From Mustelus asterias (Eukaryota), in contig NC_135804.1 of assembly GCF_964213995.1 (NCBI RefSeq), positions 44,206,001 through 44,270,000 of the forward strand: a stretch of 64,000 nt of DNA, in the 5' to 3' direction. The first letter of the stretch is position 1; each line of letters starts with the position of its first letter. Below, piece after piece: positions 15,511 through 63,367 of the stretch. The notes beneath the pieces were generated by a model. That model saw nothing but the letters and a program-made list of their open reading frames with translations. It searched no databases and was not told where the DNA came from. The position numbers and the translations under genes were made by a program.

Positions 15511-17359
15511 AGCTTAGCATAAATAGCATTATTTTAAAGTTTTAAAAAGTGCTTTTTTTGTGATGCAAAAATGTATCAGTTGTATGGCATGAAAGATTTG
15601 AGTGGCATGCATTAGTGCAGCCTACCTGACCAGTGTTACTGTGGCCACTTGCAGTGTTTGTGCTCCTCATCTGGCCTTCAAAGCCCAGGAAACGCCATTC
15701 TATTTGTACTTAATTTTTAATTTTTGGGTTTGTCCTGTTTGAATCTTATGGACAAGGAAATTTGGTAAGAATATTTTTTAGTAATTTCACCCACTGCTAA
15801 ATTTGAAATTTGAACATCCAGTGCTGTTGGTGTCAGCAGCTTGGAGATACGCAAAATAATAGTAACATTAGTGTTTATATATGGCCCCCGAGTGCTATGG
15901 CATGGACCAATGCTGCTAGCTGCATGGACCATATATATGTTTTTAATTTGGCCACCCATGGAACTGCCAAGGATAAGAATCTATTGAGATTGGTCCCTAG
16001 TTCTTCCACAAGAGCAATGCTCCACTTATCTTATGACACCACTGTGTAGGTTGGGCTACTGTCATTGGCAGCGTAATAATGTAAAGGAGCCACTTAACAG
16101 CTCACAATGGTGACAACTGTGAGAAGTGCATTAGGACGGTGCTCCTCTGATATTGGGATTAAGGGCCATTTTATTATAGAATATAGAGCGCCATGCTTTA
16201 CTAGATTAGGGAGTGGCAGATACTGGTTATAAATGCAAAACATTTTTTAAAATGGCATTATTGACATCTTTCATCTAATTAAGACAAATCTACCCCCATA
16301 TATACACACACACAAAACAGAAGCACCTATTACATTTAGGATAATTCTTTTCGGAAGCAATACAGACAAGTTCATTTACTAAATGATTCTGTAAATTTTA
16401 AATGATTTTACAGTCTGTTCATTAAAAGGTCATATGTTTCTGGTAGTGCTATTATCACAGAAAGCAAGAGTTATAGGAGAAGCTCATAAAAATGCTTGTG
16501 CATTATCAGTTAACAGAGCTATCACTGCAACTGCCAGAAATGTTTTGACATTCAGAAGAAGAAGACATTTTTGCTATTACTGTGGTAATATTTCAGAACA
16601 TCAGCAGCTTCAGTGTGTGGCAGGGAGCAGGGTTTGATTGATTTCCAGTAAATACAGTTTATGTCAATATAAGTAAAGAGATGGTATTAATAATAAGCAT
16701 AATGTTAGACAGCAATAGTTTGCAGACATAATTGCTTTAATGTGGGCAATTAAGACTAAGTGCATGTGGTTTTAGTGACTGCCCTACATTCCTTTGGATG
16801 ATTACAGTGATCAATGCATTTGATTTGTAAGTAGCTTCATATTGATCAAACAGTAGAACATTCAACCTTGAAGAAGTCATTTGCTATGACACGAAATGCA
16901 GTATCCTTTTATGCTATCAGGTTATGTTTATTTTTATGCTGATTAGCTCTTTATTGATAGCGGCAAAATTTTCTTCCCAGAATGCATTGCATATGGATAT
17001 TATTTTATAATGTTATCTATTAAAGTTCACATAAATGAATTGCTTTTATATTTTAATGTAAGCAGAAAATAGGTTAAAAGGTAAGATGGCAGAGAAGCAG
17101 TGGCAGACATTTAAGAAGATATTTCATAACTCTCAACAACGATCTATTCTACTGAGGAAGAATGCTGACAAAAAAGATGAACCAATCCTGGCTAATGAAG
17201 GAAGTTAAGGATGGTATCAAATTAAAAGGAAAGGTATATGATGTTGCAAAGATTAAAGGTAGGAGAAGGTTAGGAAAAAAGTTAGAAATTAGAAACGGAT
17301 GTCTAAAAACAAAAAGAGGAGAAATGATAATATGAGAGTAAACTGGCAAGGGATTTTTA

Positions 17360-17622
17360 CAGTAAGAAGTTTAACAACACCAGGTTAAAGTCCAACAGGT
17401 TTATTTGGAATGCGTTCCATTCCAACCATTATTCATGTAAATTGAGTCTGTGTCTTTATATGCCCTGTTTGTGAACAGAATTCCCACTCACCTGAAGAAG
17501 GGGCTTGGAGCTCCGAAAGCTTGCGTGGCTTTTGCTACCAAATAAACCTGTTGGACTTTAACCTGGTGTTGTTAAACTTCTTACTGTGTTTACCCCAGTC
17601 CAGCGCTGGCATCTCCACATCA
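17360..17622 (+). mobile_element. Non-autonomous Penelope-like (pLTR-derived) insertion A: partial inverted arm plus tail
   Basis: ~50-bp inverted arms (17359-17408 vs 17538-17587), 35-nt tail ending atctccacatca, direct repeat caagggattttta at 17347-17359 and 17621-17633. Confidence 0.8.
17489..17525 (+). ncRNA. Minimal type-I hammerhead ribozyme motif
   Basis: cac-CTGAAGA-a-GGGGC-ttgga-GCTCC-GAAA-gc-TT-gcg. Core CUGANGA/GAAA/UH is present and stem I has one mismatch. Confidence 0.65.
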
Positions 17623-17639
17623 AGGGATTTTTAAACAGA

Positions 17640-19071
17640 GGCCTAGAATTTCGCTCCACAAACTCAGTCCAGGAGAAAGTATCCTGGATGTTCCCAAAGT
17701 CCAGATATGTGCAGGTTAGGTGGATTGACCTTGCTAAATTGTCCCTTAGTGTCTCAAGTTGTGTAGGTTAGGAGGATTAGCAGGGTAAATACATGGGTTA
17801 CAGGGATAGGCCCGTAGGTGTGGAGGTGGGGGAATCTGTTGATAGAAATTAGGCCCGCTACCTTTGGAAATAGTGCGGAGTTAGCCACAGGTTCTGCTGG
17901 GTGCTGAGGTGGGCTGTGCAAAATGCTGGCTTTGGTGCTCCAAGACTTGTAAGAAAAAGAATAAAACAAAAACAGCCCTCATCCCTCACACTGCCTTAAC
18001 CCCCAAACTCTCCCCATGCTAGCTAATGCCACCCTATGCCCTTCAACACCCCCCAAGGCCCCCATACACACTATGCCAACTTATGCCCCTCTACCACCAA
18101 CCAGGGCCTCACATACCCTTCATCCTAACCTACACCCACACCCACCCTTTGCCCACACACTGTCTATGCAAACTCACCCAGTATCCACCTGAGGCCAACC
18201 TCAGGATCTAATCTGAGATGAAATAAAATAAAGTTATAATTATCAATTGATGACTTTACTATTGTAAAAAATGATAAAAACTCAGTTCCTTACATTTGAA
18301 TTTCTTCATCTAATTAATAATTTTAAAAAACAAACATTTCCTTCAAGTACTTAATCCCTTATAAAAACAAGCATTTGTATTCACATTCCCATATCAAAGA
18401 ATTTATAAGCATTTGGATTTGTCAATCAAACCGTGAACTGACAGGGACCCCAGTATGATAATGATAGGTTGTGAAATCATTCATACATCATAAATCCTAT
18501 AATAATAACACATAGGCTTTTGTCAACAGAGTGAAATAGCAAACAATGTTTTTTTTAAAACTATAGACTTGAAAAAATATTAAAGGTCTGATTTAAATGC
18601 CTTGACAGTTTGACAGTTCCAATAGGCTTTAAATATCTCAAAAGTTCAATGGGTTAATCCACTTTTTATGCGTATTCATGTCTACCTTTAACAATCTCAA
18701 AGGGCACTTGACCTCTCCCAAAGAGCACTTACCCCTTCCAAAATGTGTCCCTGGAAGGGTTCCTTGCTTCTGCAAAATTCTATGCTATCTCTCTGAAGAA
18801 CTTTGGTAAGTTTTTCCTGAAAAGTGTAGAACCCACAAGTCATGTATTAGACATCCCACTTGTAAAAATTGGATCGGTTTGAAGGCAGATTCATATTTAC
18901 ATATGCAGCTGCCTCCATAACACATAGATACTCAAATTACAACCCGCCTTCATTTTCACCTCAGTGAAAATGGTGGATGTCGGATTTCGGGTTCGGGATT
19001 TCCAGAATCTGAGTTTCAGTGCCATTTTGGCTCAGCTTGAGACCCTTTCTGTCCCTGTGGAAATTCAGGCC
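17640..19071. mobile_element. ~1.4-kb non-autonomous PIF/Harbinger-like element (contains an HE1 fragment at ~17695-17825)
   Basis: TIRs ggcctagaatttc / gaaattcaggcc and 3-bp TSD aga/aga. Internal homology to 25630-26290 and 28200-28546. Confidence 0.65.
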
Positions 19072-19681
19072 AGACTTGAAACATAAAAAAAGCAAGAGAG
19101 TAGCTAATGGTACGGTTGATCCTTTAGAGGATGAGACTGGGGAATTAATAATGCAAAACGAGAAAATGGTAGAGATTTTGAACAAATATATTTATTAGCA
19201 TTTATCCCAGAAAACAAGAAATACATCCTCAAAATAATAGAAAATCAAGGGGCAAAAGAGTGGGAGGAACTTCAAACAATTATTTCTATCAGAGGAAAAG
19301 TACTATGAAAACTAATGGGACTAAAGGCTGATAAGTTCCCTGGGCATGAAGGCCTGTGTCCAAAAGTGGCTGCAGAGATAGCGGATGAATTGGTTGTAAA
19401 GTTTCAAAATTCCCTAGGTTCTAGAAAGGTCTCAGTGGATTGGAAACTGCAAATGTACTGTGTCTATTCAAGAAAGGAAAGAGACAGAAAGCAGGAAACT
19501 ATAGCCCAGTTTCCATCATTGGGAAAATACTGGAAACCATTGCTAAGGAAGCAGTAGCAGGACATACAGAAAATCATAATACAATCAAGCAGAGTCAACA
19601 TATGTGAAATCATGTTTGGCAAATTTATGAGAGCCTTTGAGGGTTTAGCAAGCAGGGTGGAGAGAGGAACTGGTATACATA

Positions 19682-19813
19682 GGTCGGAATTCTCTGATGT
19701 TGTGTGTCGCACCATCGCTGCCAGCGAGAACAGAGAATTTGGCACTCAGCCAAATCTCAATTCACAGCAGTGGGACTGGAGAATCCCATGGACAAGGTCA
19801 GAGAATTCTGGCC
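19682..19813. mobile_element. MITE family M1, inserted in the CR1 RT region
   Basis: TIRs ggtcggaattctct / agagaattctggcc. Interrupts the DVVYLDFQKAF-type motif. Confidence 0.75.
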
Positions 19814-21506
19814 AAAGTGTATTTGAATTTCCAAAAGGCATTCAATAATGTGCACATAAATGATTTCTATACAAGATAAGAACTCATGATATATTAGCAT
19901 GTCTAGAGGACTGGCTGACTAACAGACAGAGAGTTGGGATAAATGGGTCATTTTTGTGTTGCCAAACTAACCAGCGGGGTGCCACATGAATCAGTGCTGG
20001 AGCCTCAACTATTCATAATGTATGGGCTTGGATGAAGGAGCAGAGTGTACTTTAGGCAGATTTGCTGATTATTCAAAAATAAAGTGCAGAAACAAGTTGT
20101 GAAGTGGACATAAAGAGATAGAGATGGATTAAGTGAGTCAGGAAAAAATTGGCAGATGGAATATAATGTGGGAAAACGTGAGGTTGTCCACTTGGTAGGA
20201 AGAATAGAAGAACAAAATATTATTTAAATGAAAGACTGCAGAATTCAATGGAGGGCTCTGGATATCCTTTAACTGTATATGAATCACAAGAAGTTATTAC
20301 ACAGGTACAGCAAATAATTCAGAAGGCATATGGAATGTTTGCCTTTACTGCAATAGGGATGGTGAATAAAAGTAAGGAACCCTTGTTACAACTGTACAGG
20401 GCACTTCTGAGACTACACCTGGAGTGCTGCATACAGTTGTGGTCTTGTTACTTAAGGAAAGATATACTTGCATTGGAGACAATTCAGATAAGATTCACTA
20501 TGCTGATCCCTATGATGAAGGGTTATCTAATGAGGAAATGTTGAGCAGGTTGGGCCTATACTCATTGGATTTCAGAAGAATGAGAGGTGATCTTATTGAA
20601 ACAAAGAAGATTATGAGGGAGTTGGGGATGCTGAGAGGACATCTCCCCTCAGGTAACCTGGAACTAGTGGGCACAGTTTCAAAATAAGGTGTCTATCAAT
20701 TATGATGGCGATGACAAGGAATTTCTTTCTCAGAGGGTGGTCAATCTTTGGAACTTGCTTTTGGAGAGAGCAGTGGAGGCTGGGCTATTGAATATATTAA
20801 TTGTCAAGTTAGACTGATTTTTGATTTACATTGCAGTTAAGGGTTATGGGGGGCAGGCAGGAAAATTAATTTGATACCTCAATCAGATTGGCCATGATCT
20901 TAGGTAATGTCAGAGCAGGTTTGAGGGGCCGAATGGTCTATTCCTGCCTCTGTCCCAATTTGTTTATATTCTTGTGTCAGATAATGTAGTCTTTCTTTTT
21001 GTAACACATACAATTGATGTAAACATTCAAGATATATATTGAATTTTCCTAAACTTTCCTTGTTTTATATTTCAATGGAAAAATAGTTCATCAACTTAAG
21101 GTTATTGTTAAGTATTCTGGAAACTTACTTTCTGAATATTTATTTCTGGTCTGTTTCTTTTCTAAATTCAATTTTATTTATTACTGTTACTTATCTTGAT
21201 CTCCCTTTTGTCCTTTTAACAGCTTATCTGACCTTTTTCTTCATCTCTTCATCTTTTTTCATGTTCTTGTCCAACCTTTCTTTATTGCTCAATTATCACT
21301 GTTTCTCCATTTCTCTTTCCTCCTGGTTTCATATCTCCTCAAACTCCTGGTGCATTATTTCATCCGTCTCCATCTCTGCTGTTCCTTACCTATGACCCTC
21401 ATCATTTCCTGTGGCTACACTCACAATCTTTTGATTATCATTTTGCTCTTCCAAAGCTCTAACCCTGAAACCTACTCTCTGTTTTATTCTCCACCTTTGT
21501 TTAAGG

Positions 21507-21709
21507 GTTTAAAGTTTATATATTAATGTCACAAGTAGGCTTATATTCACACTGCATTGAAGTGACTGTGTAAATTCCCTAGTTGCCACACTCTAGCACC
21601 TGTTCAGGTGCACTGAGGGAGAATTTAGCATGACTAATGCACCTAACCAGCATGTCTTTCGGACTGTGGGAGGAAACCGAAGCACCCAGAGTAAACCCAC
21701 ACAGACACG
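21507..21709 (-). mobile_element. 5'-truncated HE1-related SINE with an alternative (Rex1-like) tail
   Basis: V-domain followed by the same non-CR1 tail as 60335-60646. Confidence 0.75.
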
Positions 21710-22874
21710 ATGATGTTGATAATGACAAAGACACTTTGACTCGATCTGCACAATATTCTAATTCTGTCCCGTTATATTTTCTCATGCTATCCCTTTGATT
21801 TGGAACCCTTAGGCAAGGCAGCTCACCAACTCAGATGCCAACACTCAGGTTTGTCAGTAAGTTTAAAAATAGGGAGTCATTAAAGCAGGAAAAGACTGTC
21901 TTGCAAAGCAGGCAACTGATCTGTGTGGTGTTAATTGTCACAGTAAAGAAATCAGAGTCCTGGCAGAGTGTCAAGACTCTCTGAAACTAGATGATTCTGT
22001 CTAACGTATTTTGCATTAACATTGAAAGAGTTTCAGCTGGTTCCACCAATATAGCTTCCATTAGCTTTTTTTTAAAGCACTACATCTCAAAATAACTGTA
22101 AAAGCTACTTGAAAACCAAGATATCAAACAGCGAAATTGATTTACCTTGTAGTTCATTATTGTCTTGCTAACTTAAATGAATGCTGGATATAAAATACAG
22201 CATTTGAATGATTAGCAGACAATCAAACTGCATGAAGAAAATGTGTATTAGCTTCTGGTTCTGAAGATTCTAAAAGGGAATTAGAATTATTCTGCATTTT
22301 TTTGAAATGCCACTTCAGTTAATAACTAGAACACAAGTAATTGATTAATTAATGCGTGAGCATATAACTTGAAGCCAGGGAAAGACTTGAAAGAAAATGT
22401 AATTCAAGTACTGTTGTATTTAAACTGATCTCTCACCTGTGACTTGAACAGATATCTGGCTAAGCGATGAACTGAGTGACGAACTTTCGGTATTCCTTCT
22501 GCCAGTGTGTTACTGTTCCAATGAAGAAAGCTCTACATTAAAAAAAAAATTAAAATTTACCAGTCACAACCCAATCCCAATTGGGTTTGAGTAAGAATAG
22601 TGGTTTGACATCCAATAAGAAATGCTGCAAATTCCTACATTTAATGCATGACTTGTGATGCACTCTGAGTACAATAATTTGTCCGAAAACATTAAAAATA
22701 TTAACATCTGATTGATAACCAATCATTAGCCTAAGGCATGAGTCCATATTTTGGGACTACGCATAATTCGCAACCAAATGATAACATAGGAATTGGAAAA
22801 TGTAACAAGTGTTACAACCAGAGGAGTACAAAGGGGAAAACACATTATAGGGGTCAAGTAGATATAGCATAAGT

Positions 22875-23398
22875 GGGCTGTTTCCGGGAACGCACACCGA
22901 GACAAATATCAACTGCTGCTGGAGGGTCATCAACTCGGTGAAGGACGCGCTTTGGTCCGTCCGAAACTTGCTGATCTTCCAGCTGAAAGAATTGTCCTCG
23001 ACCGAGTGTTGCAGACTGGCACATTCCAAGGTCCAGGACTACGTGCTCAGGGACGCGCTCAAGCTTGGGGCAGCCGCCGCCAAGGCACAATGGGGAAAGA
23101 CCACCGTGTAAAGCGTCTCAACCGAGGCAGACCGAGGGCCGGGTAACTGCAGAATACCCTCGGCCTGCGTAACTGTGTGCCAACCTGAAAAATAACGGCA
23201 CACAGTAAACTCTGACGTATGTATATAGTTTTAAGAAGTGAAATGTAACGAAATGTAATGTTTTGTAAATAAGCACTGTGTTGTACTGTAAAAATGATTC
23301 TTTTTTGCACTGTTCATGACTTTTGGATCTGTCATTTTGCTATGTTTTATTGGAGAGTTTTGTTTTGTGAATAAAGTATATTTTTGAAATAAAAAAAA
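22875..23398 (+). mobile_element. Young 5'-truncated Tx1 (L1-group) LINE
   Basis: Open frame 22875-23111 (GLFPGTHTETNINCCWRVINSVKDALWSVRNLLIFQ...AKAQWGKTTV*), 3' UTR, AATAAA at 23370, A-tail, TSD ataagt (22869-22874 / 23399-23404). CpGs intact. Confidence 0.8.
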
Positions 23399-23587
23399 AT
23401 AAGTACAACCCCAAAAGTGAACAGAAACAGCTTAGAAAATGTTCACAAATATCCTCGCTACAGACCTTCAATACATTTAGTAATTTTGTCCTGATTGTTA
23501 TGGGTAATTAATACCAGCCCAGCATTGGCAGTGCAGAGCTATGTTAATAAAATGGCACATGATTCAATAGTAGCATGATTCAAAATT

Positions 23588-23897
23588 GCTGCTTCACAGC
23601 TCCAGAGACCTGGGTTCGATTCCCGGCTTGGGTCACTGTATGGAGTTTGCACATTCTCCTCGTGTCTGCGTGGGTTTCCTCCGGGTGCTCCGGTTTCCTC
23701 CCACAGTCCAAAGATGTGCGGGTTAGGTTGATTGGCCATGCTAAAATTGCCCTTGGTGTCCTGGGATGCGTAGGTTAGAGGGATTAGTGGGTAAATATAT
23801 GGGGGTAGGGCCTGGGAGGGATTGTGGTCGGTGCAGACTCGATGGGCCGAATGGCCTCTTTCTGTGCTGTAGGGATTCTAAGAATTCTAAGATTCTA
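23588..23897 (+). mobile_element. HE1 SINE (box A region lost)
   Basis: Box B GGTTCGATTCC, V-domain, tail (gattctaa)n. Confidence 0.9.
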
Positions 23898-24080
23898 GCT
23901 ATACAGAGCTGTGTCAAGACAGTACAGCTACTGCAGAGATGTTTTAAACCAACCTGAAGCTGATACCAAAGACCAAAGTGGCGAAGATAAAAGTAATGAT
24001 GTTTCTGTCTGTCATAATTTTGATTTTAGAACAGTCGTATTTTTACCCCACAACACAAGTACCATTTCACAAACAACTTA

Positions 24081-24362
24081 GCCCTGGAATTTCAGTCTCA
24101 GGTCGGGAGCTCAGAGTCGGGACATTTTGCTTTGCAAACCTGATCTGGGAGAAAATGGTGTGGAAGCTGGGAATTATGTTTTTTTCTGGGGTGGCGGGAT
24201 TCCCTGGGAGTCAGGCTGGGTGGCCCTGGAATGAGTGTGCCAGGTGTGGAGACGGGTACAGTGGGAGGCTGAGTGGGAGGCCTGTCTCTAAGAACCAGCA
24301 CTGTATCGAAGTTTTACAAAAATACAGAAAAACATAAAACAGCACTCCAGGACACCCCCACA
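24081..24362. mobile_element. Left-end fragment of a Harbinger-like element
   Basis: tta|gccctggaatttc terminus. 24301-24360 matches 25650-25710 and ~17940-17990. Confidence 0.45.
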
Positions 24363-25379
24363 CACAGGTTGGATTTGGATTCTTCACTAAACCATAAAAT
24401 AAGAAAATTCTTTCTGAGGGATATATTGTCAAAAAGGACATCACTAATTTAGAATATAAATGAACAAGGGTTATTGGGCAATAATGATTGACGCTTAACA
24501 TTTCACTCATCGAGGCATGGCACGAGGCAAAGTTCAATGTATGTCCGTCTGCCTTTCCGTTGGATCTCGGGACTTCTGTTGGATCCTCAAACTTGGTCTC
24601 TCGACTCATGGCATTCTGTGAGATTTTAGCTTATTGAACTTAATTCTAATATGTATATAAACCCCTTTGCAGCTTTAAGACTAGTGGATGCATTTTCAAC
24701 CCACAATCCCACAGTCCACTTTAACTGCTAAAGCTTCCAGTCCAACTGCTGAAGCTGCACACTTCACAGCTGCCTGCTGAGTGTTCTCTCTCTGGTGGAG
24801 ACAATTTTCTAACAATGACTATTGATTCTCTCTTAAAGCAATTACTTCAGGCCATATACTGGATCCTAATGCTGATCTCAACCTGTGACAATTACTTTAG
24901 TCACTTCTGGGTCCTTATTGAAACCCCTCAATCAGCAACAAATGCCCATCAACTGGTAATGTCCTTTGCAGATGCTAATCTCTGAAGCAAGTGCCCAGTC
25001 CTAATTCTCTTTGCTGACAAATGCCCCCAGCAAGTGTTCTGTGATAAATGCTATCCATTGGCAAGTGCAGGTAAATTTACAACATTTTGCCCTAGTATGC
25101 GCACCTGAATCAACACAACTAATAACTTCCAACCAAATACTTGTGACACTTGAACAATGGAAGAGCACTTTTAGTTTCCCCACAACAGCCAAGCCAACTT
25201 TTCAGTCTTGTATTCCTCCTAACGACTAAACAGGAGGCCCTGGAACACACGGTGCTCAGACCACCTTCCTGACCATAACTTCAGCTTTTTCTTAACGCTA
25301 TATCACTAACTCTAACCAACTTTAAGACTTCTTTGAAACATATCCAAACATACATGAATGATCCCAATAATACATACAC

Positions 25380-25532
25380 AGAAACATAGAAATTAGAAGC
25401 AGGAATAGGCCATTCAGCCCTATGAACCAGCTCCGCCATTCATTTTGATCATGGATGATCATTGAATTCAATATCCTGATCCCCCTTCCTCCATATCCCT
25501 TGAACCTTTTAGCCCCAAGAGCTATGTCTAAT
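25380..25532 (-). mobile_element. CR1 3'-end fragment
   Basis: agaaacatagaaattagaagcaggaataggccattcagccc... is the reverse complement of a CR1 3' UTR. Confidence 0.7.
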
Positions 25533-29568: not shown

Positions 29569-29722
29569 ATGGTAGTTTGAGAACTTGAATTCAGTTTGTT
29601 TATCAAAGAAGCTGAACAAGTAAAAATGACCCCAAAGCCATTGGATTGCCACAAAAACTCAACTCAATAACTAAGAACTTTATGGAAAGAAATCTATTAT
29701 TCTTACCTGGGCTAATCTACAT

Positions 29723-30008
29723 GTAAGAAGTCTCACAACACCAGGTTGAAGTCCAACAAGTTTATTTGGTAGCAAATACCATAAGCTTTCGGAGCTTGCT
29801 GCTCCTTCGTCAGATGGAGTGGTCTCTGTTCTCCAACAGTGCACAGACACAGAAATCAAGTTACAGAATACTAATTAGAATGCAAATCTCTACAGCCAGC
29901 CAGGTCTTAAAAGGTACAGATAATGTGGTTGGAGGGAACATTAAACACAGGTTAAAGAGATGTGTATTGTCTCCAGACAGAACAGCTGGTGAGATTATGC
30001 AAGACCAG
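29723..30008 (-). mobile_element. Penelope-like insertion B (single arm, no tail)
   Basis: Near-identical to 61132-61314. Flanked by gggctaatctacatgtaa (29709-29726) / gggctaatctatatgtaa (30009-30026). Confidence 0.8.
29779..29817 (-). ncRNA. Minimal type-I hammerhead ribozyme, intact core
   Basis: Minus strand CCAT-CTGACGA-a-GGAGC-agcaa-GCTCC-GAAA-gc-TT-ATGG: perfect stem I, perfect stem II, palindromic AAGCTT in place of stem III. Confidence 0.8.
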
Positions 30009-30149
30009 GGGCTAATCTATATGTAACAGTTCCACACTAACTATGGTTGACCCATAGCAGCCCTTGATGCATCCTGCTCAGTGTGATATAGTGAGAGAGG
30101 AATGGCCCTCAACATTGACTTCACAAAGTCTCCTAACTTCAGGCCAAAC

Positions 30150-33270: not shown

Positions 33271-33384
33271 TACTGAATAATGATGCTATGTTAGTCATCT
33301 GACCACTCATTTGCATCACCTAACCAAAAGTAATGACGCCATGGCGAGTTCTAGGAAAGTATGGCAGTTTGCAAATTGTGTCAC

Positions 33385-35269: not shown

Positions 35270-36032
35270 GGGTTGGATTTTTCAGGTCCTTTGGAGGAAG
35301 GCTGGGATGGCTGGTATAAATGAGGGGTGAGGAAGCCCAAACCTTTTCTACTACCACTGGATGTTACTAGTGATGGGAGCCACAGCATCGCTGGGTGGCG
35401 AAGGACCACCTCCTGCTCCTCCCGTCATTTAACCAGCATTGGGATCACTGCTAGTATGAGGGGCAACTGCCAGTCTCCCAGAGGAGACCCTCCTTTATAT
35501 TCAGAGGGCCAGAGCAACCATTGGAATGTGGGACCCTGGAATGATCAGCAAAAAAACTTATCTTGTCTTCATGGTGCTCTCTTCTTCTTATTGGAGCTTC
35601 AGCTGTGGCCATCTCGAATGGTGGTGCTGCCAAGGCTGCGTGCGGCTCCTGGGATGACCTAACAGCTCAAGGGAGGGGCTGCCATCCTCAATTGAGGAGA
35701 ACCTCACAATTGCCTGCTGCTAGTATAATGTTGTGATGTGGAGATGCCGGCGTTGGACTGGGGTAAACACAGTAAGAGTTTTAACAACACCAGGTTAAAG
35801 TCCAACAGGTTTATTTGGTAGCAAATGCCATTAGCTTTCGGAGTGCTGCTCCTTCGAGGAGCAGCACTCTGAAAGCTAATGGCATTTGCTACCAAATAAA
35901 CCTGTTGGACTTTAACCTGGTGTTGTTGAAACTCTTACTGAGTAAAATGTTGCCCAGGGTCCCACCATACAGAGTAAGGACCCGCTTTCAGTCACGGCTA
36001 CAGGACCACTTACCTTTTTGGAAAATTCAGCC
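35270..36032. mobile_element. Harbinger-like non-autonomous element hosting Penelope-like insertion C
   Basis: Degenerate TIRs gggttggattttt / gaaaattcagcc. Confidence 0.45.
35734..35940. mobile_element. Penelope-like insertion C: near-perfect 171-bp palindrome plus 36-nt tail
   Basis: Arms 35770-35853 / 35857-35940 with loop tcg. Tail 35734-35769. TSD agtataatgttg (35722-35733) / agtaaaatgttg (35941-35952). Confidence 0.85.
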
Positions 36033-53640: not shown

Positions 53641-54279
53641 TTTTACATCTAGCCATTCTCATTCCGAGTTTCATTGTTTTCTACATATTTTTCAAAGAGA
53701 CAATATCAGTCAATGTTGAAATAAAACACATGCACGCTTTACATATTTTAAGATAGAGAACTGTCCTGCTTTTGTTCTCAATTTTTCAAGACTGCACAAA
53801 TAAAAATTATAAATCATGGCGAATGCAGTTTTAAAAAATGTAGCACTATAATTGTGTTACCTTGAATGTGGGTCCTACCAAAAACGAGAGGCAACATGTT
53901 TTATAACATCAAAAGAAAACCTGACACCTTAAGTATAAGGAGATTAGCAGTTACAATGATCAGTAGCAAATACCAAGAAGCTTAATACATACAGCTGGAA
54001 GGGATAATTATCTGTAAATTGCCACCAGTGCTCTTCAATTTAATGTATAAAGCCTGCCACATCATACAAGTCTAATGTCTCTTAGATTTTCCATTGAGTT
54101 TCCTTTGGAAAAATGAAAAATAATTAATGAGCTAGGCAAAAAAAGGATGTTGCTGTGACATGCTTACGAAATAAGTAGTAAGGTCCACCCACTGGCACTG
54201 AATATACAATAAGCAATTGTACTTGTATAAGTTAAAACAAAGTTCTTAGGATGTGGGTGATTCTGGCAAGGCCAGAATT

Positions 54280-55022
54280 TTTTGATTTGATTTGATTTGA
54301 TTTTTTAAAATTTGATTTATTATTGTCACATGTATTAGCATATAGTGAAAATTATTGTTTTTTGCATGCTATATAGACAAAGCATACCGTTCATAGAGAG
54401 GGAAACGAGAGAGTGCAGAATGTCGTGTTACAATCATAGCTAGGGTGTAGAGAAAGATCAACTCAACACAAGGTGGGTCTATTCAAAAGTCTGACAGCAG
54501 CAGGGAAGAAGCTGTTCATGAGTCGGTTGGTACGTGACCTCAGACTTTTGTATCTTTTTCCCGATGGAAGAAGGTGGAAGAGAGAATGTCTGGGGTGCAC
54601 GGGGTCCTTAATTATGCTGACTGATTTGCTGAGGCAGTGTGAAGTGTAGACAGAGTCAATGGATGGGAGGCTGGTTTGCGTGATGGATTGGGCTACATTC
54701 ATGACCTTTTGTGGTTTCTTGCGGTCTTGGGCACAGCAGGAGCCATACCAAGCTGTGATACAACCAGAAAGAATGCTTTCTATGGTGCATCTGTAAAAGT
54801 TGGTGAGAGTCGTAACTGACATGCCAAATTCCCTTAGTCTTCTGAGAAAGTAGAGGCATTGGTGGACTTTCTTAAGTATAGCATCCACATGGGGGGCCAG
54901 GACAGGTTGTTGGTGATCTGGACACCTAAAAACCTGAAGCTCTTGACCCTTTCTACTTCGTCCCCGTTGATGTAGACAGGGGCATGTTCTCCTTTACGCT
55001 TCCTGAAGTCGATGACAATCTC
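54280..55022 (-). mobile_element. Rex1/Babar-clade LINE, 3' ~740 bp
   Basis: ORF 54463-54888 (LYFLRRLREFGMS...FYRCTIESILSGCITAWYG...PSGKRY...NSFFP) is the C-terminal region typical of Rex1/Babar ORF2. (TCAAA)n tail. Confidence 0.85.
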
Positions 55023-55034
55023 ATTTTATTGCTG

Positions 55035-55370
55035 ATGGTCTATTGTGTGACCTCCATCATCTAGAAGGACAAGGGCAGCAGTAGATGGGAACACCACCAG
55101 CTACAAGTTCGCCTCCAAATCACTTAACTGGAGGGGAACTTGTAGATCGTGGTGTTGCCATGAACTTGAAAATGTATCGTCATTCTTTCATCATCAGTGG
55201 GTCAAAGCCCTGGAAAGCCCCTTCCTAATAGCACTTTGGGAGTACCTTCATTACACAAACACAGTGGTTCAAGGAGGCAGCTCACCACCATCTTCCCTAG
55301 GGCATTTAGGAATGGCAATAAATGCTAGGCTTACCATTGATGTCCATATCCCATGAATGAATTAAAAGAA
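55035..55370 (+). mobile_element. Second CR1-group LINE family, 3' end (with internal foldback)
   Basis: gaaggacaagggcagcag...gcagctcaccaccatcttcc...cccatgaatgaatt. Confidence 0.65.
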
Positions 55371-55479
55371 ATGTGATGTTGCGCCTTGTCCTTGAACAGC
55401 CCAATCTTTGTGCTGAAGGGATCCCACTGGTGCTGGATAGGGAATTCAAGGATCTTGGCTAATTGCATACACCCAAATC

Positions 55480-55613
55480 GGGAGACAGGATTTTCCGGCT
55501 GTGCTCGCCCCAAAACCGGAAAATCCCGCCTGAGGCCAACAGATCTTTGCGTGGTCTGCCTCCCACCTGCCGACTACGAGTCCCATGGTGGGCAGGCTGG
55601 GAAAATTCCCCCC
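55480..55613. mobile_element. MITE family M2
   Basis: ggattttcc ... ggaaaattccccc ends. Core cccgcctgaggccaac shared with 9527. Confidence 0.55.
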
Positions 55614-56390
55614 CGATTGGTGATTGACTCAATGGCGATGGTATTAGTTGTCTTGTCCTTCTTGTTGGTAGAGCTGTGAGGCACTTTCAAAGTAAAATCA
55701 GAGAGTTGCTGTAGTGGATCCTGTAGGTATATACTGTAACCAGATTCCACTAATTGTAGAAAAGTGGCTGCTGAGTCCAACAGGATGGGCAGTGTTTATG
55801 TTTCTGGCGTGTTTTACAACTGCATCTATCCAGGCGAGTGCCCAGCCTTTTCCCTGTTCATTGACCACATGCATTTTGATGATTTGAGTGAAGGATCCTT
55901 TTTGTTACTTTCAAACTGATCGGGATAGGGATGTTTGCATTCACTGCCTGGGTTGCAATCTGCTGGAGTGAATTACCCCTTCTTTATAGAACCCACCTGA
56001 CCTTCATTCCATTGATTTCTGCCAGATGACTAACTCAGCAGCAAAGACAAAAATCCCCCTACCCCTCCACCCCCTTCAGTGTCTCAAATTGCATGACAAG
56101 CAACTTTTGTGCAATTCATTTTTCATAACTTTTAAATTTGTGATCCCCTAAATGTAGCCATGAGTGGGGGGAAAAAAGAATGGTCTTGATAAACTACACA
56201 CTCCACTTTGTCTTACTTCCTTTCAAACAAAGAAGAATGATCATTTCGTGGAACCAGATACAAACTATAATCACTGTTAATTTGGCAATGGTTATACTTG
56301 CTGGCCCAGAGAAGATGGCTTAGGGCAGTATTATAATTTTTAAAGGAGATAGAACGTTGCCTTTGACTATCACTGTATCTCCCCCATCCC

Positions 56391-56464
56391 GTGGTCATGT
56401 GTGGCTTTTGCTACCAAATAAACCTGTTGGACTTTAACCTGATGTTGTTAAACTTCTTACTGTG
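56391..56464 (+). mobile_element. Penelope-like insertion D (74-bp minimal copy, ribozyme absent)
   Basis: gtgtggcttttgctaccaaataaacctgttggactttaacc...cttcttactgtg. TSD tctcccccatccc (56378-56390 / 56465-56477). Confidence 0.8.
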
Positions 56465-57403
56465 TCTCCCCCATCCCCCCAGCTGTACATCAAAACTTTC
56501 CAAAGTATCAACTTTTTGACATGACCCGTTCATGTTGTACAACATTGCAGGCATGCGATGTATGTGTATGAAATGCAGTTTAAAATCTTGTAAATGTGGC
56601 AACTTGATTTTATTGCAGGGCTGACGAATCCTTATAATGAGATAGGCCACCTTAAATTAAATAATGAGGATTTGTGTAATCAGATTGGCATTCCTCTTGA
56701 CTGTTAATTGTAAAAATGTAAAGGAATTTGAAGCCTGATTTGCCTGGCAGGATATTCTTTCAGCTTTTTTTTCAAACTCTTTTCCTTCTTGCCCAACATC
56801 TGGAACATTGAGGGTAGCTCAAGGGTATTTCTACCTTATCTGCGTTCTTGTTAGAGTTTGATGCATTCTTCCCCAACAAACCTTTGATTAGGTAGCAACT
56901 GCTTGCTCTGATCTGTTGGTTGACCTCCCACAAGAGGTTGCTGTCACCAACCGAGATGTCCTTGCCTGTCACTTCACACATTTTAACTTCCCCGACTGGA
57001 TGGTTGAAATATTTATTGCCAAAGTAATTTTGTTTTGGATCCGACTGGAATTGATTAGTGATTGCGTTTTCAAGAGAACACTTGCAGGGAGTGCAGGAAG
57101 CTGAACAAACACCCACTTTCCATTTTCTGTGGCAACACTGTGGGCGGGAATGTGGAGTCTTTCCCGCTGTGGAGGCCAATGGGGAACCACACCGTATCTT
57201 CTGGCCCCGACCGCATTCATTATGCGCCCGGGTGTTTTGCGCCATTTTCCACGGTGGGCAAGACCTGATTGCGCGTAGTCCTCCATCGTATCCGGGTGGC
57301 ATATTGAAAAGTTGCCCAACATCATTTGAAAAACTATTGTTAGGACATCTGCAATATTCTCACCTACTTCCTTATTTGACATGTCCATCTCCTGCTTATT
57401 TTA

Positions 57404-58546
57404 GGTGGCATGGTGGCACAGTGGTTAGCACTGCTGTCTCACTGCGCCTGGCACCCGGGTTCAGTTCCGGCCCCAGGTGACTGTCTGTGTGGAGTTAGCA
57501 TGTTCTTCCCGTGTCTATGTGGATTTCCTCTGGGTGCTCCAGTTTCCTCCCATAATCCAAGGATGTGCGGGTTAGGTTGATTGGCCATGCTAAATTGACC
57601 TTAGGGCCCTATTTTACCATTTTGATTCTAAGTGCTGGGCGGACTTGAAACTGGGAGTGTTTCAGATCCGACTTTTAGACCCGTTCTCAGGCACCTCCAT
57701 ACGCACTCTGCCTGAAAAAATATCAGCAATTCTGAATCGTGCTGCACAAACCTGTGGGCAGGGCTTAGTGCGCCCGAAATCCTGCAGCTCTGATTGGCAC
57801 CTCCAACTGCGCATGCACAGACAAAAAATGATAGAATACGGCTCCCCTGCCACATCACTCCCGGGCCGGATAATGCCTCCCCCTGGGCCCCGCAGACATT
57901 GCCCAACTCCTACAACATTACTGACCCCTAATCTCCCCCCCCCCCGCCTGACCCACCACTGATGTCAGGCAGAGTGGCAGCGGACCCCCCTTCCCCCTCA
58001 CTGATCACAGGCAGAGTGGCAGCGGACACCCCCCTCCCACCCCCCCACCACCACTGATGTCAAGCAGAGAGCCGTCGGGAAGCTCGGCACCTACCTCCTC
58101 ACTAATTGGAGCGCCCGAATCGGACTTCAGTGCAGCATGTCTGTTTCGCGCTGAATCTGGATTGGTGAACACGGTGGTAAAGGGGGAAGTGCCAGTAAGA
58201 TTGGGCGTGCAGCCCATCAAGTCAATTTGAATGCATGCAAATGCATTTAAATGGCCGTCACGCCCGTTTCGGCCATGGTCTCGATCGTGGATATTTTCAG
58301 GCCTTGATAAAGGGGGAACTGGCGCGGAGGCAGGTGCGGATCGTGCTACTCGCCTCACGCCCGACTTTACCAAGTTTTGGTTGAAAACGGGCGCAACTTG
58401 ATGGTAAAATCAGGCCTTTAGTGTCAGGGGGATTAGCAAGGTAAATACGTGGGGTTGTGAAGGTGAGCTTGGGTGGGATTGTTGTCAGTGCTGGCTCGAT
58501 GGGCTGAATGGCCTCCTTCTGCACTGTAGGGATTCTATGATTCTAT
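57404..58546 (+). mobile_element. HE1 SINE split by an 814-bp Harbinger-like element
   Basis: Head at 57404-57603, remainder at 58418-58546. Confidence 0.9.
57604..58417. mobile_element. PIF/Harbinger-like non-autonomous element
   Basis: TIRs gggccctattttaccat / atggtaaaatcaggcct, perfect TTA TSD (57601-57603 / 58418-58420), CpG-rich, internal repeats of caggcagagtggcagcggac. Confidence 0.85.
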
Positions 58547-58719
58547 CATCACTGACTCACTATCGAAGAATGAAGATGGACCTCCTGAAAATGAAGATGG
58601 ATCTGCAGGCAAATCCTGAGGGTGCAAAATGGATCTCCTCGATGGCACTGTATCCGGAAGATCCACCTGTCAATACTCTCCTGCATCCACTGCTATGGTG
58701 TTCTGGGGTCTAGGTTTAC

Positions 58720-59034
58720 CGATGGCCTCTATTATGAACTCCGGAGGTAGCCACTGGCATCCTTCAGGTAAGTCCCCACATCTGCATGGCATGTTGTTCC
58801 CAGTGTGTTTTGCACCCGTATACATTTCCTCTGGGCCAGTGGGGAATCAGGCAAGGGTGAAAGATCCCGGTGGACCTTTACCTGCATCCCTTTACTGGAA
58901 TTCCCGATCTGCCACGGCATGCACTAATGGAAGATACCGCTGGAAATTCACACTGACGTGAAACCGATTTTTGCACTCCAATCAAATTCTCCCGACCCCT
59001 GCCCACCATTGGAGCTGCTGGGAGAATTCCACCC
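58720..59034. mobile_element. Harbinger-like fragment (right end)
   Basis: Ends gggagaattccaccc, the TIR type of the other MITEs. Confidence 0.4.
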
Positions 59035-59179
59035 TGTGCATGAGTAATGTAGTGAATTCTGGGAGTTGAAATCAGAAGTTCACAGTGTCTGTGGCGTTGG
59101 TATGTTAAAAGAGAAATGTGACTTAACTAAAATTTACTGTTAGTTTTTATTTACTGATGGAACGATCTGAAAGAATCTT

Positions 59180-59317
59180 GGCCAGGATTCTCCGAACTCA
59201 TCCGCAGCTGGGATTCTCCAGTCCCGCTGCTGTGAATGGAGATTTGGCTGTGCGCCAAATTCTCCGTTCTCACTGAGAGTGGTGGTGGGAGCGTACGACA
59301 TTGGCGAATTCTGGCCC
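59180..59317. mobile_element. MITE family M1
   Basis: TIRs ggccaggattc / gaattctggcc and shared core. Confidence 0.75.
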
Positions 59318-60334
59318 CTGGTTGAAAGTTTACATTGATAGAAGTTACATAATTTTCAATTAAAATTCTTTCTGTCACATGTACAGGTTTGTTCCTGGTT
59401 TTAACGAAAACCGGAACTCATGTTGAACATGAATCATTTGGGGTCCTGTCACGAATAGTGCAATAAAACTTCTACAGTAAGTCCTCACTTAGAGTTGTCA
59501 TTGCATTCCTGAAAACCGTGATTTTAAGTGAAACAACTTTAAGTGAACCATGGGTGCCCATGGGAATCAACGTTAAAGCCAATGTAAGGTTCCTTCTGAT
59601 ATTATTTGCTTGGAAGCAGCAATGTACAAGTTGAAATACTGTACTGCACATGTGCAGAACCACGCTTTCCGAGCTGAAATAACTTGCAAAGAGAATAAGT
59701 CACTAAATGTAAAAGGAATGCTGTAGAAATAGGAGGGAAAACATTAGAAGCCTACAGGCAAAGGGCAGGGGGGTGGGACTAGTTGAATAGCTATTACAAG
59801 GAGCTGGCATAGGCTTGATAGGCTGAATGGCTTCCTTCTGAGCTATATAATTTGATTATTCTAAGATTAGAAGCCAAGGTGAAGCCTGTAAGTTTGGTCC
59901 TCTGACCCTAGACTCCACTGAAAACCTCTGTAACATTCAGAAACCTTGTCCCCTAAATGCTTTATTCTGCAGCTCATGCAGTCTTACAGTTAAATGCATA
60001 TTTAAAAGAAAATCTTTTGGTAACCTTTCAGTCATGAAACGCTGCATTACATTTTCACATCTCCTTTTATCTCTGCCCATTGTGTTTGGTTGCCCCACTG
60101 ATTTTCTTCCTGAGCATTCTTCATCCTTCGAAGAAAATATTTAATCCTATGTCACAGATGGTTACCCTCACCCTTCAATGACCTTCAGGTAGGTTTCCAG
60201 TATTCTTTGTTCAAATCTCCACAGATTCAGGTCAATAGCATTTCTATTCGCTCACTGATCTGCGATGACTATGTGCAAAGACACGCGATGATGACATGCA
60301 ACTTTATGCTGCCAATGCACGGGAGCAACCTAAC

Positions 60335-60646
60335 GGCGCGGCATGGTGGCAGAGTGGTTAGCACTGCTGCCTCACAGCGCCAGCGATCTGGGTTCAATTC
60401 CTGGCTTGGGTCACTGTCTATGCGGAGTCTGCACGTTCTACCCGTGTCTGCGTGGTTTTCCTCCGGGTGCTCCGGTTTCCTTCCACAGTCCAAAAGACGA
60501 GCTGGTTAGGTGCATTGGCCATGCTAAATTCTCCCTTAGTGTACCCGTACAGGCACCGGAGTGTGATGACTAGGGGATTTTCACAGTAACTTCATTGCAG
60601 TGTTAATGTAAACCTACCTGTGACACTAATAAATAAACTAAAAACT
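60335..60646 (+). mobile_element. HE1-headed SINE with a Rex1-like tail
   Basis: Boxes A/B and V-domain as in HE1, then ...ttttcacag...tacctgtgacactaataaataaact instead of the CR1 tail. Confidence 0.85.
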
Positions 60647-61187
60647 TAAGTGACAACGCAAATCAGAATAACAGGCTTTAAATGACTTTAAAACCAGACA
60701 ACAAAGGAGGGTTTCTCCAGTCATGTCAGATGGCCAGCGGGAATCCTGATGCCCTGCTGAATGGGGCGATGGCCAAATAACCCAGACTGGGCAGATCCCA
60801 AAAATTGTACAAACCCGCTAAATTATAATACAATTAGTGGGCTGGGCAGCTCATTCAGCAGCCTCCTGCCTTGCACCCGCCTCCCCATAGGGAAATGCAC
60901 CGGGCTGATAATGACCCAAGGGGTGTCAAGGAGGTAGGTCCAATAGCCATTCACCTTTCTGCCGTTACCAGGCTGCACAGGTTCCCCCAAGGGTCCTGGG
61001 AGATTGGATGGGCTCGGGCTGGGGGCAAGGGGTTGACCCCATCACTCTCCCCCGGGATGGGGGGTCGTGTGGCTGGACTGCCCTTCCTAGCCCTGATGTG
61101 GAGATGCCGGCGTTGGACTGGGATAAGCACAGTAAGAAGTCTCACAACACCAGGTGAAAGTCCAACAGGTTTATTTGGTAGCAAATA

Positions 61188-61226
61188 CCATAAGCTTTCG
61201 GAGCTTGCTGCTCCTTCGTCAGATGG
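61188..61226 (-). ncRNA. Minimal type-I hammerhead ribozyme, intact core
   Basis: Identical to 29779-29817. Confidence 0.8.
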
Positions 61227-61379
61227 AGTGGTCTCTGTTCTCCAACAGTGCACAGACACAGAAATCAAGTTACAGAATACTAATTAGAATGCAAATCTCT
61301 ACAGCCAGCCAGGTTGTTCTAATTAGTATTCTGTAACTTGATTTCTGTGTCTGTGCACTGTTGGAGAACAGAGACCACT

Positions 61380-61418
61380 CCATCTGACGAAGGAGCAGCA
61401 AGCTCCAAAAGCTTATGG
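61380..61418 (+). ncRNA. Minimal hammerhead motif, core-mutated (GAAA to AAAA at 61407)
   Basis: CCAT-CTGACGA-a-GGAGC-agcaa-GCTCC-AAAA-gc-TT-ATGG. Confidence 0.7.
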
Positions 61419-63367
61419 TATTTGCTACCATATAAACCTGTTGGACTTTAACCTGGTGTTGTGAGACTTCTTCCTAGCCCTGGCAGACTTGAAGATCACC
61501 CCTGGCATGGTGATTTCAAGCAGCGCTCTGTTCAACATCTTCATTCCTGCCTGCCATCTCTGAGAACTTTGAAGTGCCTTGGTTACTTAAATCTCCATGC
61601 CTCTTGGTCACCTGGTAGGCTTTTAAATCACAGCAGCACTCCATTCTGCATCAGGGATCTCTCTCTCTCTCTCTAGCAAGCCGCAGTTATGAACAGACCC
61701 CTTTGAAGTCCTCTGATTGTCAGAAGACAGTCACTTTTACTCGGGGAGAATTCCCATCTCCACAGCTCAGAGTCTTTGAAATACCTTGCAACCATTTCAA
61801 AACCTCTGTTACCATTTAATTCCCGTCGCGTCCTTTTAATTGTCATTTGACTGGCAGCTTAAGGGTTTTACACAGCATGCAGTCAGCTGTGTTTATTTAC
61901 CTTTCCCTTCACGCTTGAATGCATGTCAAGTACCCTCATTGTTCCTAACCATAATGTTTACACAAAAGAGGAACTGAAAAACACTTAGCTCTGAAGTTGT
62001 GACCCGGGGGAAGGTGGCAAGGTCAACACTCTTGTCCCCAGCCCGAGCCCACCTAACCCCAGGACTCTTGGGGGTCCATTCCTTTGCAGCCTGGCAGTGG
62101 GAGAGGGCACATGTGCTCTGGATTTACCCAATGACCCCCCCCCTTCAGGATGTAAGATGCCAGGCCAAGGTGTCGGTGACAGGGGGCAGTGCATTGTTTG
62201 CACTGCCGAGGTGCTGGGCCTGAAGGGGGCCTGAGTGAGGGTGGGGGTCTGAGGGGGGGGGAAGGTGGCATCGAGTCAGGTCACCCTCATGTCTGCATGG
62301 TGTGGGGGGAGGGGGGTGATCCGTTATTTGGGTGGCGGGGGTGGAGGATGCCCATTTTTGATGAGGAGTTGGTGGTTCTCCCCTGGTCAGCAGGGGGGGT
62401 GTCACCATTTCCACCTCTGGGGGTTAGGGGCTTGTCTCTGATGGCGGAGATCGGGGCACCCTTTAAAATGGTTCCCCGAACCCTTAAAAGCCGGACTGGT
62501 TGTTGTGATTTGCAGGATGCATGAATTTGCATCCATCAGATGGGTGAGTCCCACCTGACTGATGCTGCCAGCACCAATGGGAAACACTCCGGTTTTCCTG
62601 CTGTCATGGACACTTAGTCCAGATTCAGGAAAATCACGCCCGTTAAGTGGGATGACTTAAAGTGAGGACTTACTATAATTGTTTTTATATTCAATCTTCT
62701 TGACTCCTCTCTTTTCAGAATTGACTCAACCACAGACTTCCATCTTGCAACTTGTCCAAGTGGTTTTGTTCCAGTGACTGATGAAGAGCTTCAAACCTCT
62801 ACACAGTGTTAAAGTTCTGGCCATTGAATGTGACCCGCAGCAGAAAGATAGGCTAAATTCCATCCCTCCCCCACCCTGCTCCCTACTTTGGATTTTTGAT
62901 GCTGATTTTAGCAACTCTACGAGTCCATAGGTTGAAATTAGTTAAATTAGCACAGATTAGCTATTGAACCAATGCCTTTTCTGGTCTATATAATTTAGTA
63001 CCATACCAAATGTTTTATTTATACACTAAAACCATTTGGGAGGTAGATACAGAGCTAAAGATTCTCAGATCTCACCACGGGTGAAACTAATTTGGTGTTT
63101 GGAAAGACAAAATTCCAATTGGAGATATTCAATATGGAGCCTAATAAGTGACTGAGGGCAGGGGCCTGAAAAAAAACTGAGGCTTTAACAAATAATAAAA
63201 TGTTGTTCTTAAATGTGAGGAGTGAGGGACAGCTACTGAAGTATAATTTCCTTCACTTTTAGCGATGATTTATCCAGATAGGGATATTTTCTCATTGATT
63301 TTTGACATTGAGTTCTTGTTATGAATAAACTATTCCACTTAAAAATACCTTTTTCCTGATAGGGTAG

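Follow-up and report, generated by a model that had tools for sequence, protein, structure and literature searches.

Truncated Penelope-like insertions in the shark Mustelus asterias, their palindromic target and their junctions at a predicted ribozyme cut

The window analysed here is a stretch of 64,000 nucleotides (nt) from the shark Mustelus asterias (NC_135804.1, 44,206,001-44,270,000, forward strand), and coordinates given without a locus name are positions in it. It contains five short insertions, which the original prediction had described as one family of non-coding, hammerhead-bearing Penelope-like elements. Their relationship is real: a shared 38-mer has eight matches in the window at three or fewer mismatches and none in 100 shuffles. 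These eight matches belong to five insertions, since the 38-mer is present twice, head-to-head, at 17360, 35734 and 61094. These palindromes, three of the five insertions, are absent from the earlier description, which otherwise stands as an observation and also overlooked the long and short ends, the dyad target and the pile-up of junctions at the ribozyme cut that are described below. As it had stated, all five insertions have target duplications (longest repeated stretches 12-19 base pairs (bp); 12, 13, 12, 13 and 12 bp when anchored on the dyad), and none of the five stop-to-stop frames of at least 150 amino acids (aa) in the window overlaps an insertion. The best explanation overall is probably an autonomous Penelope-like element (PLE) with two-ended priming at a dyad target, a minority of whose templates are cut by the ribozyme.

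Insertion 1 lies within CTG-N16-CAG between copies of a 12-bp duplication (17348..17359, right copy 17622-17633). Its inverted arm (17360..17408, minus strand) has a short 3' end and ends within the 38-mer. Its sense arm (17415..17621, plus strand) is the 3' part of a pseudo-long terminal repeat (pseudo-LTR) and has a long end, a tail that ends beside the start codon of the element. The arm carries a minimal type I hammerhead of the CAC/GUG stem I subfamily with one stem I mismatch (17486..17528, plus strand; predicted cut after 17522). Insertion 2 is a single arm with a short end (29725..30011, minus strand), truncated at its 5' end to a point about 20 nt past the ORF stop codon of the full element. 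It is flanked by a 13-bp duplication (29712..29724, right copy 30012-30024 with one mismatch) in CTG-N17-CAG and has a minimal type I hammerhead of the CCAU/AUGG stem I subfamily (29777..29819, minus strand; predicted cut after 29783 on that strand). Insertion 3, in CTG-N16-CAG with a 12-bp duplication (35722..35733, right copy 35941-35952 with one mismatch), is a near-symmetric palindrome. Its left arm has the long end and stops in the hammerhead 5' box (35734..35856, minus strand), and its right arm has the short end (35857..35940, plus strand); both arms end within the ribozyme, 34 and 31 nt upstream of the 38-mer.

Insertion 4, the 74-bp one, lies in CTG-N17-CAG with a 13-bp duplication (56378..56390, right copy 56465-56477). 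Its sense arm (56399..56464, plus strand) has the short end and begins at the predicted hammerhead cut; base 56398 matches the element too. An 8-nt filler precedes it (56391..56398, minus strand), seven of whose eight letters are the reverse complement of the first 8 nt of the open reading frame (ORF) of the element. The filler is probably a minimal long-end arm, to judge from this match; its exact form was not found among 291 loci. Insertion 5, in CTG-N16-CAG with a 12-bp duplication (61083..61094, right copy 61470-61481), has a left arm with the long end (61095..61314, minus strand) and a right arm with the short end (61317..61469, plus strand). The left arm has an intact hammerhead (61186-61228, minus strand; predicted cut after 61192), and the fourth hammerhead of the window, in the right arm (61378-61420, plus strand), has G12 changed to A. 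Complete CUGANGA...GAAA motifs number three (17486-17528, 29777-29819 and 61186-61228), as had been reported earlier.

Judged from their sequences, the five insertions are almost certainly 5'-truncated copies of an autonomous PLE. The copy at 29725-30011 shares 99.6% identity over 235 nt with the pseudo-LTR belonging to a copy in which the 892-aa ORF for a reverse transcriptase (RT) and a GIY-YIG endonuclease is intact. In a comparison of 5' ends with the reference locus L002 (locus L020 omitted), the 3' end was common to 18 of 19 other loci, and the starts were staggered and continued into the ORF: three loci run off, and the others start at 160, 275, 859, 930 and onwards to 1497. The exact 38-mer occurs 133,202 times in the genome (66,486 + 66,716), and its reversed control does not occur. 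A search of the same genome with 29723-30008 found at least 42 places at 98-100% identity (40 scored of 1,067 candidates), in agreement with the recent activity originally proposed. The family is thus very abundant, and the partner ORF with RT and GIY-YIG that the original prediction had looked to a genome-wide search for was found. Of the two origins offered there, the truncated PLE is supported by the linkage to this ORF, and the dedicated non-autonomous family is not.

The single long ORF lies upstream of the pseudo-LTR, and its start codon directly follows the long 3' end. Two copies were read throughout: the C21 copy has the intact 892-aa ORF, and the C19 copy is frameshifted at 793 aa. 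Motifs of the intact ORF are DKG (297), YIDD (533), CHSNLCKTC (754), VVYLIRCKKGCPEAWYIG (791), MNEH and GEHF. The RT (YIDD at 533) is followed by a C-terminal GIY-YIG (VVY...YIG at 791), the order found in endonuclease-bearing (EN+) PLEs. A CCHH motif, with two cysteines between the GIY and YIG triplets, and the DKG motif are both present, and CHSNLCKTC at 754 provides the CX2-5CxxC linker between RT and endonuclease that characterizes Neptune and Nematis. The unit reads start codon, RT, CX4CxxC linker, GIY-YIG with CCHH, stop codon and a pseudo-LTR of about 260 nt with the minimal hammerhead near its end, followed by the 38-mer, the short end site, the 37-nt tail and the next start codon. The pseudo-LTR forms a partial tandem (an upstream piece is present at 11 of 30 ORF-start loci), and the inverted 5'-truncated copy and the tail of about 37 nt also agree with EN+ PLE structure. 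Because the linker zinc finger and the CCHH motif are present, the element is by its motifs a Neptune/Nematis-type EN+ PLE under the definitions in the accessible text of PMC8557442. It resembles the elements treated there in the single ORF with RT then GIY-YIG, the CX2-5CxxC linker, CCHH and DKG, and in the partial tandems, the inverted 5'-truncated copy, the 30-40-nt tail and the pseudo-LTR hammerhead. The class of element, its inverted structure, its tail and its hammerhead are already known.

Pfam returned RVT_1 alone for an 832-aa piece of the ORF. The lack of a GIY-YIG call in this search speaks against the assignment, which is based on motifs and homologues; Pfam GIY-YIG is recorded for some of the homologues. 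The closest proteins (84-92% identity) are annotated in Heptranchias, Scyliorhinus and Mustelus, followed by turtle and invertebrate proteins at 35-45%, and the nearest 120 are unnamed or 'uncharacterized'. A PDB sequence search with the same 832-aa piece gave no match.

Several further features of the long copies were observed. One subfamily has a 60-nt insert at the end of the ORF that changes the C-terminus to ...MSHYFT and has 4,303 exact marker copies (L036, L144, L166-L195). Local hopping, considered for two nearby copies that have this insert in common, was rejected, the insert being the mark of that subfamily. Full-length copies seemed to share a 5' end near the stop codon, which could have been a transcription start, but this proved to be a BLAST artefact; two of three copies extend further. 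Four single-arm copies (L102, L108, L137, L140) have 5' ends within 12 nt of one another, about 482-494 nt upstream of the 38-mer in the endonuclease coding region; an RT stop or an RNA break site is possible there. No intron-like joint was seen in contigs from sequencing runs of other organisms.

The structure of the copies was studied in a sample of 170 arms, unselected for 5' length, from 214 kb around the window and from loci at the first-listed exact 38-mer matches on C1. A dedicated non-autonomous, retrozyme-like family, amplifying as short units or as re-mobilised palindromes, is very improbable. It would agree with the short, non-coding nature of most copies and with two inversion junctions that are common to separate insertions with different duplications. 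However, genome-wide counts are only 2 and 3 for these two junctions and 1 for the junction of the 61094 insertion, and re-mobilised palindromes were accordingly rejected as a family. Copy lengths are continuous up to full length with no fixed unit, and every subfamily checked, the CAC/GUG subfamily likewise, includes long ORF-bearing copies. Among the 170 arms only three distinct same-strand neighbour pairs were found, none of which repeats one unit, and the window has none. The part of the original prediction that envisaged such a family is not supported, there being neither a fixed unit length nor head-to-tail arrays of short units in these arms; a minor derived family may still exist elsewhere in the genome. 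Animal non-LTR retrozymes, in the accessible parts of PMC7229834 and bioRxiv 10.64898/2026.07.22.740005, are likewise non-coding, carry type I hammerheads and are related to PLE pseudo-LTRs, but they are head-to-tail repeats of a fixed 150-450-bp unit, whereas the shark copies are dispersed, variably truncated, head-to-head and continuous with the ORF.

The two recurrent junctions were observed as follows. L047:1290-1600 and L048:1440-1760, 1.8 kb apart on C1, are palindromes with different duplications that have an inversion junction and a private substitution in common; their long ends are on opposite sides, and their junction is the one that occurs 3 times. Local gene conversion between the palindromes and local re-copying are candidate readings. 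L117 and L148, 1.1 Mb apart on C1, have in common the junction that occurs twice, with different duplications and subfamily variants in their arms, which suggests ectopic conversion of palindrome centres between nearby copies.

A DNA transposon moved by a DDE transposase, in the manner of a miniature inverted-repeat transposable element, has a negligible probability. Inverted termini, a nearly fixed duplication length and a palindromic target are what such an element would have. The arms, however, are 5'-truncated pieces continuous with the RT ORF, the two ends are unequal, and duplications flank single-arm copies too. The physical linkage to the RT and GIY-YIG ORF, which had been proposed as the distinguishing feature, refutes a DDE element, and the equal terminal inverted repeats expected of one are lacking.

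The target was defined from 132 distinct sites found without any motif requirement. The duplication is 12 bp long in 63 of them, 13 in 33 and 14 in 20. In the 63 sites with 12-bp duplications, T is present at -4 in 56, G at -3 in 58, C at +3 in 59 and A at +4 in 57. The spacer from CTG to CAG is 16 nt in 43 sites and 17 in 10, and both half-sites are present in 42% of the 132 sites as against 1% of random positions. The dyad is present at each of the five sites in the window (spacers 16, 17, 16, 17 and 16). The element inserts at a dyad target, CTG-N16/17-CAG, of which 12-13 bp are duplicated, and an insertion usually consists of two head-to-head arms, one with the short and one with the long end. 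From this geometry we infer that two endonuclease domains nick symmetrically, 12-13 nt apart.

The 3' ends of the 170 arms are bimodal, lying about 9-24 or 42-60 nt past the 38-mer. The sample includes 61 head-to-head pairs. All 49 pairs that bear a duplication combine one long and one short end, the long end being on one side in 28 and on the other in 21. A second set, chosen by a subfamily marker, gave the same combination in 15 of 15 pairs (three common to the first set). Of 92 dyad-defined sites from all loci, 78 have a long and a short end, none has two ends of a kind, and 14 lack a recognisable inverted arm; several copies that seem to be single-arm open with a few nucleotides belonging to the opposite end. 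In contigs from the run of another organism, 543 and 550 loose ends fall at the two sites. In the accessible PLE literature (PMC8557442) targets are AT-rich or microsatellite, the duplication is variable and the tail is 'often' at one end; the shark element differs in its CTG/CAG dyad, its 12-13-bp duplication and its long/short rule, which has no exception at sites with a duplication and an inverted arm. The tail at one PLE end is described in the accessible parts of PMC3846280, PMC8557442 and PMC2377424.

The two arms of a pair usually belong to the same subfamily, and in the 49 pairs their lengths are correlated (rho 0.84; for a few long arms the lengths come from BLAST and the centres are loosely placed). 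Near-symmetric pairs number 21 of 49 (null mean 3.5). The long-ended arm is the longer in 19 pairs and the short-ended arm in 18, and the two differ by 2 nt or less in 12. A stable hairpin around the two end sites, considered separately, was unsupported (z -0.2 to -1.1). Some loci have head-to-head arms of 1.5-2.4 kb each at 99% identity (L051:2975-7442, L053, L034/L035, L185/L186), and such long near-perfect palindromes may be fragile sites or sources of double-stranded RNA. Opposite-strand joints between a short and a long site were seen in contigs of other organisms (L095:1281-1321; runs X19, X2), and a loose joint of this kind with a 14-nt spacer in L013; they could be an insertion beside the end of another copy or the joined ends of an intermediate.

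When the dyad is used to set the limits of the duplication, microhomology between the target and the continuation of the RNA averages 1.41 nt at short ends (null 0.68, n=78) and 1.35 nt at long ends (null 0.50, n=72), in both cases above all 2,000 shuffles. As read from these sequences, nicking at the dyad with two primings at fixed short and long sites is the probable mechanism. Two endonuclease domains, probably of a protein dimer, would each nick one of the two strands, 2 nt 5' of a CAG. The two resulting 3' overhangs would then prime reverse transcription by pairing over 1-3 nt, one at each internal start site and usually on the same RNA. Both cDNAs would end early and be joined in mid-insert by snap-back or end joining, and where one arm is tiny or lost a single-arm copy would result.

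Priming at one end only, followed by self-priming of the cDNA or RNA into a hairpin with the tail asymmetry arising from endonuclease resolution, has been suggested (PMC3846280 and PMC8557442, accessible parts). It is improbable here. The near-symmetric arms and the common subfamily of the two arms are expected from fold-back, and the commonest cut-site junction is compatible with snap-back with a 5-nt loop. Yet fold-back of a long-primed cDNA needs a long arm at least equal to the short arm, so the 18 pairs with a longer short arm make it insufficient by itself, and fold-back of a short-primed cDNA cannot provide the tail that is present. The microhomology excess at both ends and the arms on opposite sides of the cut in 3 of 24 loci also disagree with it. 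Two priming events on one RNA explain both the arm lengths and the tail, and fold-back can serve as the joining step within this two-primer scheme. In L1 twin priming, too, both target ends prime on the RNA and an inversion results, but the internal site at which the second primer anneals is variable, and there is no overlap between the two parts. In the shark element both primers would be at fixed sites 37 nt apart, so that the arms overlap and a palindrome forms.

The closest experimental system is the Poseidon element PAc of Anolis carolinensis (PMC11167929, accessible parts). Its protein, a predicted dimer, cuts and extends both strands and uses two adjacent internal RT starts that bracket the tail, and most of its templates are not cut by the ribozyme; in these respects the two elements are alike. 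In PAc the starts lie 111-118 nt into the ORF, ATT is preferred and priming is reported to occur without homology, whereas the shark element has its long site at the start codon, a dyad target, microhomology of 1-3 nt at both ends and ribozyme-cut junctions. Poseidon-clade elements lack the linker zinc finger that the shark element has. Further points count against the favoured explanation. The choice of start site is the same on both strands in the Anolis system (PMC11167929). The long/short rule is broken in 6 of the 12 pairs that lack a duplication (6 mixed, 4 short-short, 2 long-long), which, after a check of some of them, we take to be separate or rearranged insertions. Lastly, the dimer, the nick positions and the RNA cleavage are all read from genomic scars.

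The hammerhead is complete in 114 of the 170 arms, in 65 variants. It has the features of a minimal type I ribozyme: CUGANGA and GAAA boxes, a UH cut site, and paired, covarying stems I and II. In a set of 21 chosen variants, mostly recurrent ones, the catalytic boxes are invariant and stems I and II are paired in 95.2% of 189 cells, against 30-51% in slid controls. The covariation of stem I between subfamilies noted earlier is upheld, pair 2.1-1.1 being C-G in 11 and U-A in 10 of the 21. Two pairs have changes on both sides, and the outer stem I pair fails in 8 variants. The variants are related, so that the pair changes represent few independent events. Position 17 is U, A or C, never G, in the 114 motifs. 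The stem III palindrome, AAGCUU or AAGCUA, is present; an unconstrained co-fold of two copies favoured intermolecular pairings other than the dimeric hammerhead. A pattern search, as envisaged originally, finds the motifs, and Rfam at its gathering threshold gives no match. Dimer cleavage of PLE hammerheads is attributed to PMC5785218 in the accessible text of PMC6765202. The minimal PLE hammerheads of PMC4209133 (accessible parts) are alike in being type I with a stem I of 3-4 bp, an extra A between 9 and 10.1, a G10.1-C11.1 pair, a palindromic 15.2-16.2, no loop 3 and many variant families; opposite-strand pairs 100-700 bp apart are also reported there. Stem II is 5 bp in the shark as against 7-8 bp in Schistosoma (PMC4209133). 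Small indels right at the cut, seen in L027:2167-2207, L131 and arms like them, distinguish subfamilies: GUGUGG, GUGG and a third form that lacks the 7 nt preceding the 38-mer.

For the GUGUGG subfamily, 5' junctions were counted across the genome by means of patterns in which three upstream mismatches are obligatory. There were 1,267 junctions at the cut position and 273 when the same design was shifted 3-4 nt upstream. Among 100 cut-site matches listed, classed by eye, the next upstream base matches the element in 23, about the level of chance, which places the edge of the junctions at the scissile bond; 9 are the centre of a blunt palindrome. Among the control matches listed, also by eye, 20 resemble restarts that set out from the cut end, and in 10 it is the other arm that stops at the cut; two of three such loci that were inspected show the restart. 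A wider pattern had 1,211 matches, of which 60 among the 100 listed were examined with their context. Its 43 GUGUGG copies have 24 junctions from the cut to +2 and 6 in the 3 nt upstream (p=0.0014), with 2 at -8/-7, 8 at -6 and 3 at -5. In a subfamily predicted to be cut at -9, 7 of 13 copies have their junction at -10 to -8. Flanks were unrelated in the 30 cut-site loci inspected, and where an inverted partner arm exists it passes the cut in 3 of 24 (one locus classed by eye). Several sampled arms start at the predicted cut like the 74-bp insertion of the window, and by a rough estimate cut-site arms number about 3,000, a few percent.

These junctions, as genomic sequence, make it quite probable that the hammerhead cuts a minority of templates in vivo. 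The cDNAs of cut RNAs would run off the cut end and give insertions like the 74-bp one. Against this stand several observations. One junction type with a 1-nt overlap, a possible hot spot, makes up 26 of the 100 matches listed (by eye), and the second peak at -6 (8 of 43) lies off the cut. The genome-wide test consists of one subfamily and one control, and the second subfamily contributes 13 junctions only. Most templates read through the cut site, since the whole motif is kept in 114 of 170 arms; and of the 11 ORF-start copies preceded by a 38-mer, 10 continue beyond the 5' cut, some as far as the end of the previous ORF. It follows from the last two that most templates are uncut or re-ligated. 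The Anolis system did not require ribozyme activity, and none of its RNA reads had an end at the cut (PMC11167929, accessible parts).

An alternative origin of the pile-up at GCUU|GUGUGG, such as pausing of the RT where the ribozyme is folded, a hot spot of microhomology or the start of transcription, is unlikely. The frequent junction type, the second peak, the spread of the main peak over 3 nt and the lack of observed RNA ends in Anolis (PMC11167929) fit this explanation. It does not account for the sharp edge at the scissile bond or the chance match of the next base, for blunt palindromes with both arms ending at the cut and restarts that begin there, or for the roughly 940 junctions, against 273, that remain when the hot-spot class is removed. 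In addition, 30 of the 100 control matches listed themselves resemble cut-end products (by eye), the excess of G at -1 that a cap might leave is not seen, and position 17 varies as described. Joints from inside the ORF start back to the cut position were observed at L095:1409 (ORF +92), in two other organisms (runs X19, X2), and L217 has an ORF-start piece joined to the cut end; these are possibly template jumps between the ends of cut RNAs or a third 3' end site.

Cutting in a minority of templates may be part of a wider scheme in which the productive template is a ribozyme-cut, re-ligated circular unit RNA bound by a protein dimer. A circular template was proposed in PMC4209133 and restated in PMC6765202 (accessible parts); for the shark element it is a doubtful possibility. 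As in a homodimeric nuclease, the palindromic target would be read by the two GIY-YIG domains of the dimer, whose two RT sites would load at the short and the long site of a single RNA. An RT that crossed the old cut into the ORF and went beyond unit length would leave partial tandems and variable 5' pseudo-LTRs. Linear cut RNA would yield dead-end inserts of up to 100 nt, and a broken circle symmetric palindromes. If true, tail, inverted repeats, pseudo-LTR and hammerhead would come under one model. The subfamily indels at the cut are consistent with ligation and are no demonstration of it. Read-through RNA from tandem masters accounts for long copies as well as circular RNA does.

The origin of the PLE tail, inverted arms and pseudo-LTRs and the action of the hammerhead in vivo are stated to be open in PMC8557442, PMC4209133 and PMC11167929 (accessible parts). 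In vivo evidence is said to be absent in PMC4209133; the shark genome has a footprint at the cut, and cut-site junctions would be genomic evidence of a PLE hammerhead acting in vivo. A retrotransposon with a dyad target and two-ended priming departs from the sequential scheme of long interspersed nuclear elements (LINEs). A palindromic PLE target, a strict rule of one long and one short end, and genomic ribozyme-cut junctions are unreported in the accessible literature, which also includes PMC6155905, PMC8782182 and PMC12910113 and has most subscription papers outside it. With more than 100,000 young copies and at least one intact ORF, these questions about PLEs become countable in a genome and testable with one protein and a CTG-N16-CAG substrate.

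Many copies lie inside other repeats. The flanks of L002, L019, L020, L039, L102, L108, L137 and L140 place them within RT-coding repeats that we take to resemble CR1/L2-type LINEs. The window itself has a 176-aa open frame at 54463-54993 on the minus strand, presumably similar to the C-terminal part of an L2/Rex-type LINE ORF.

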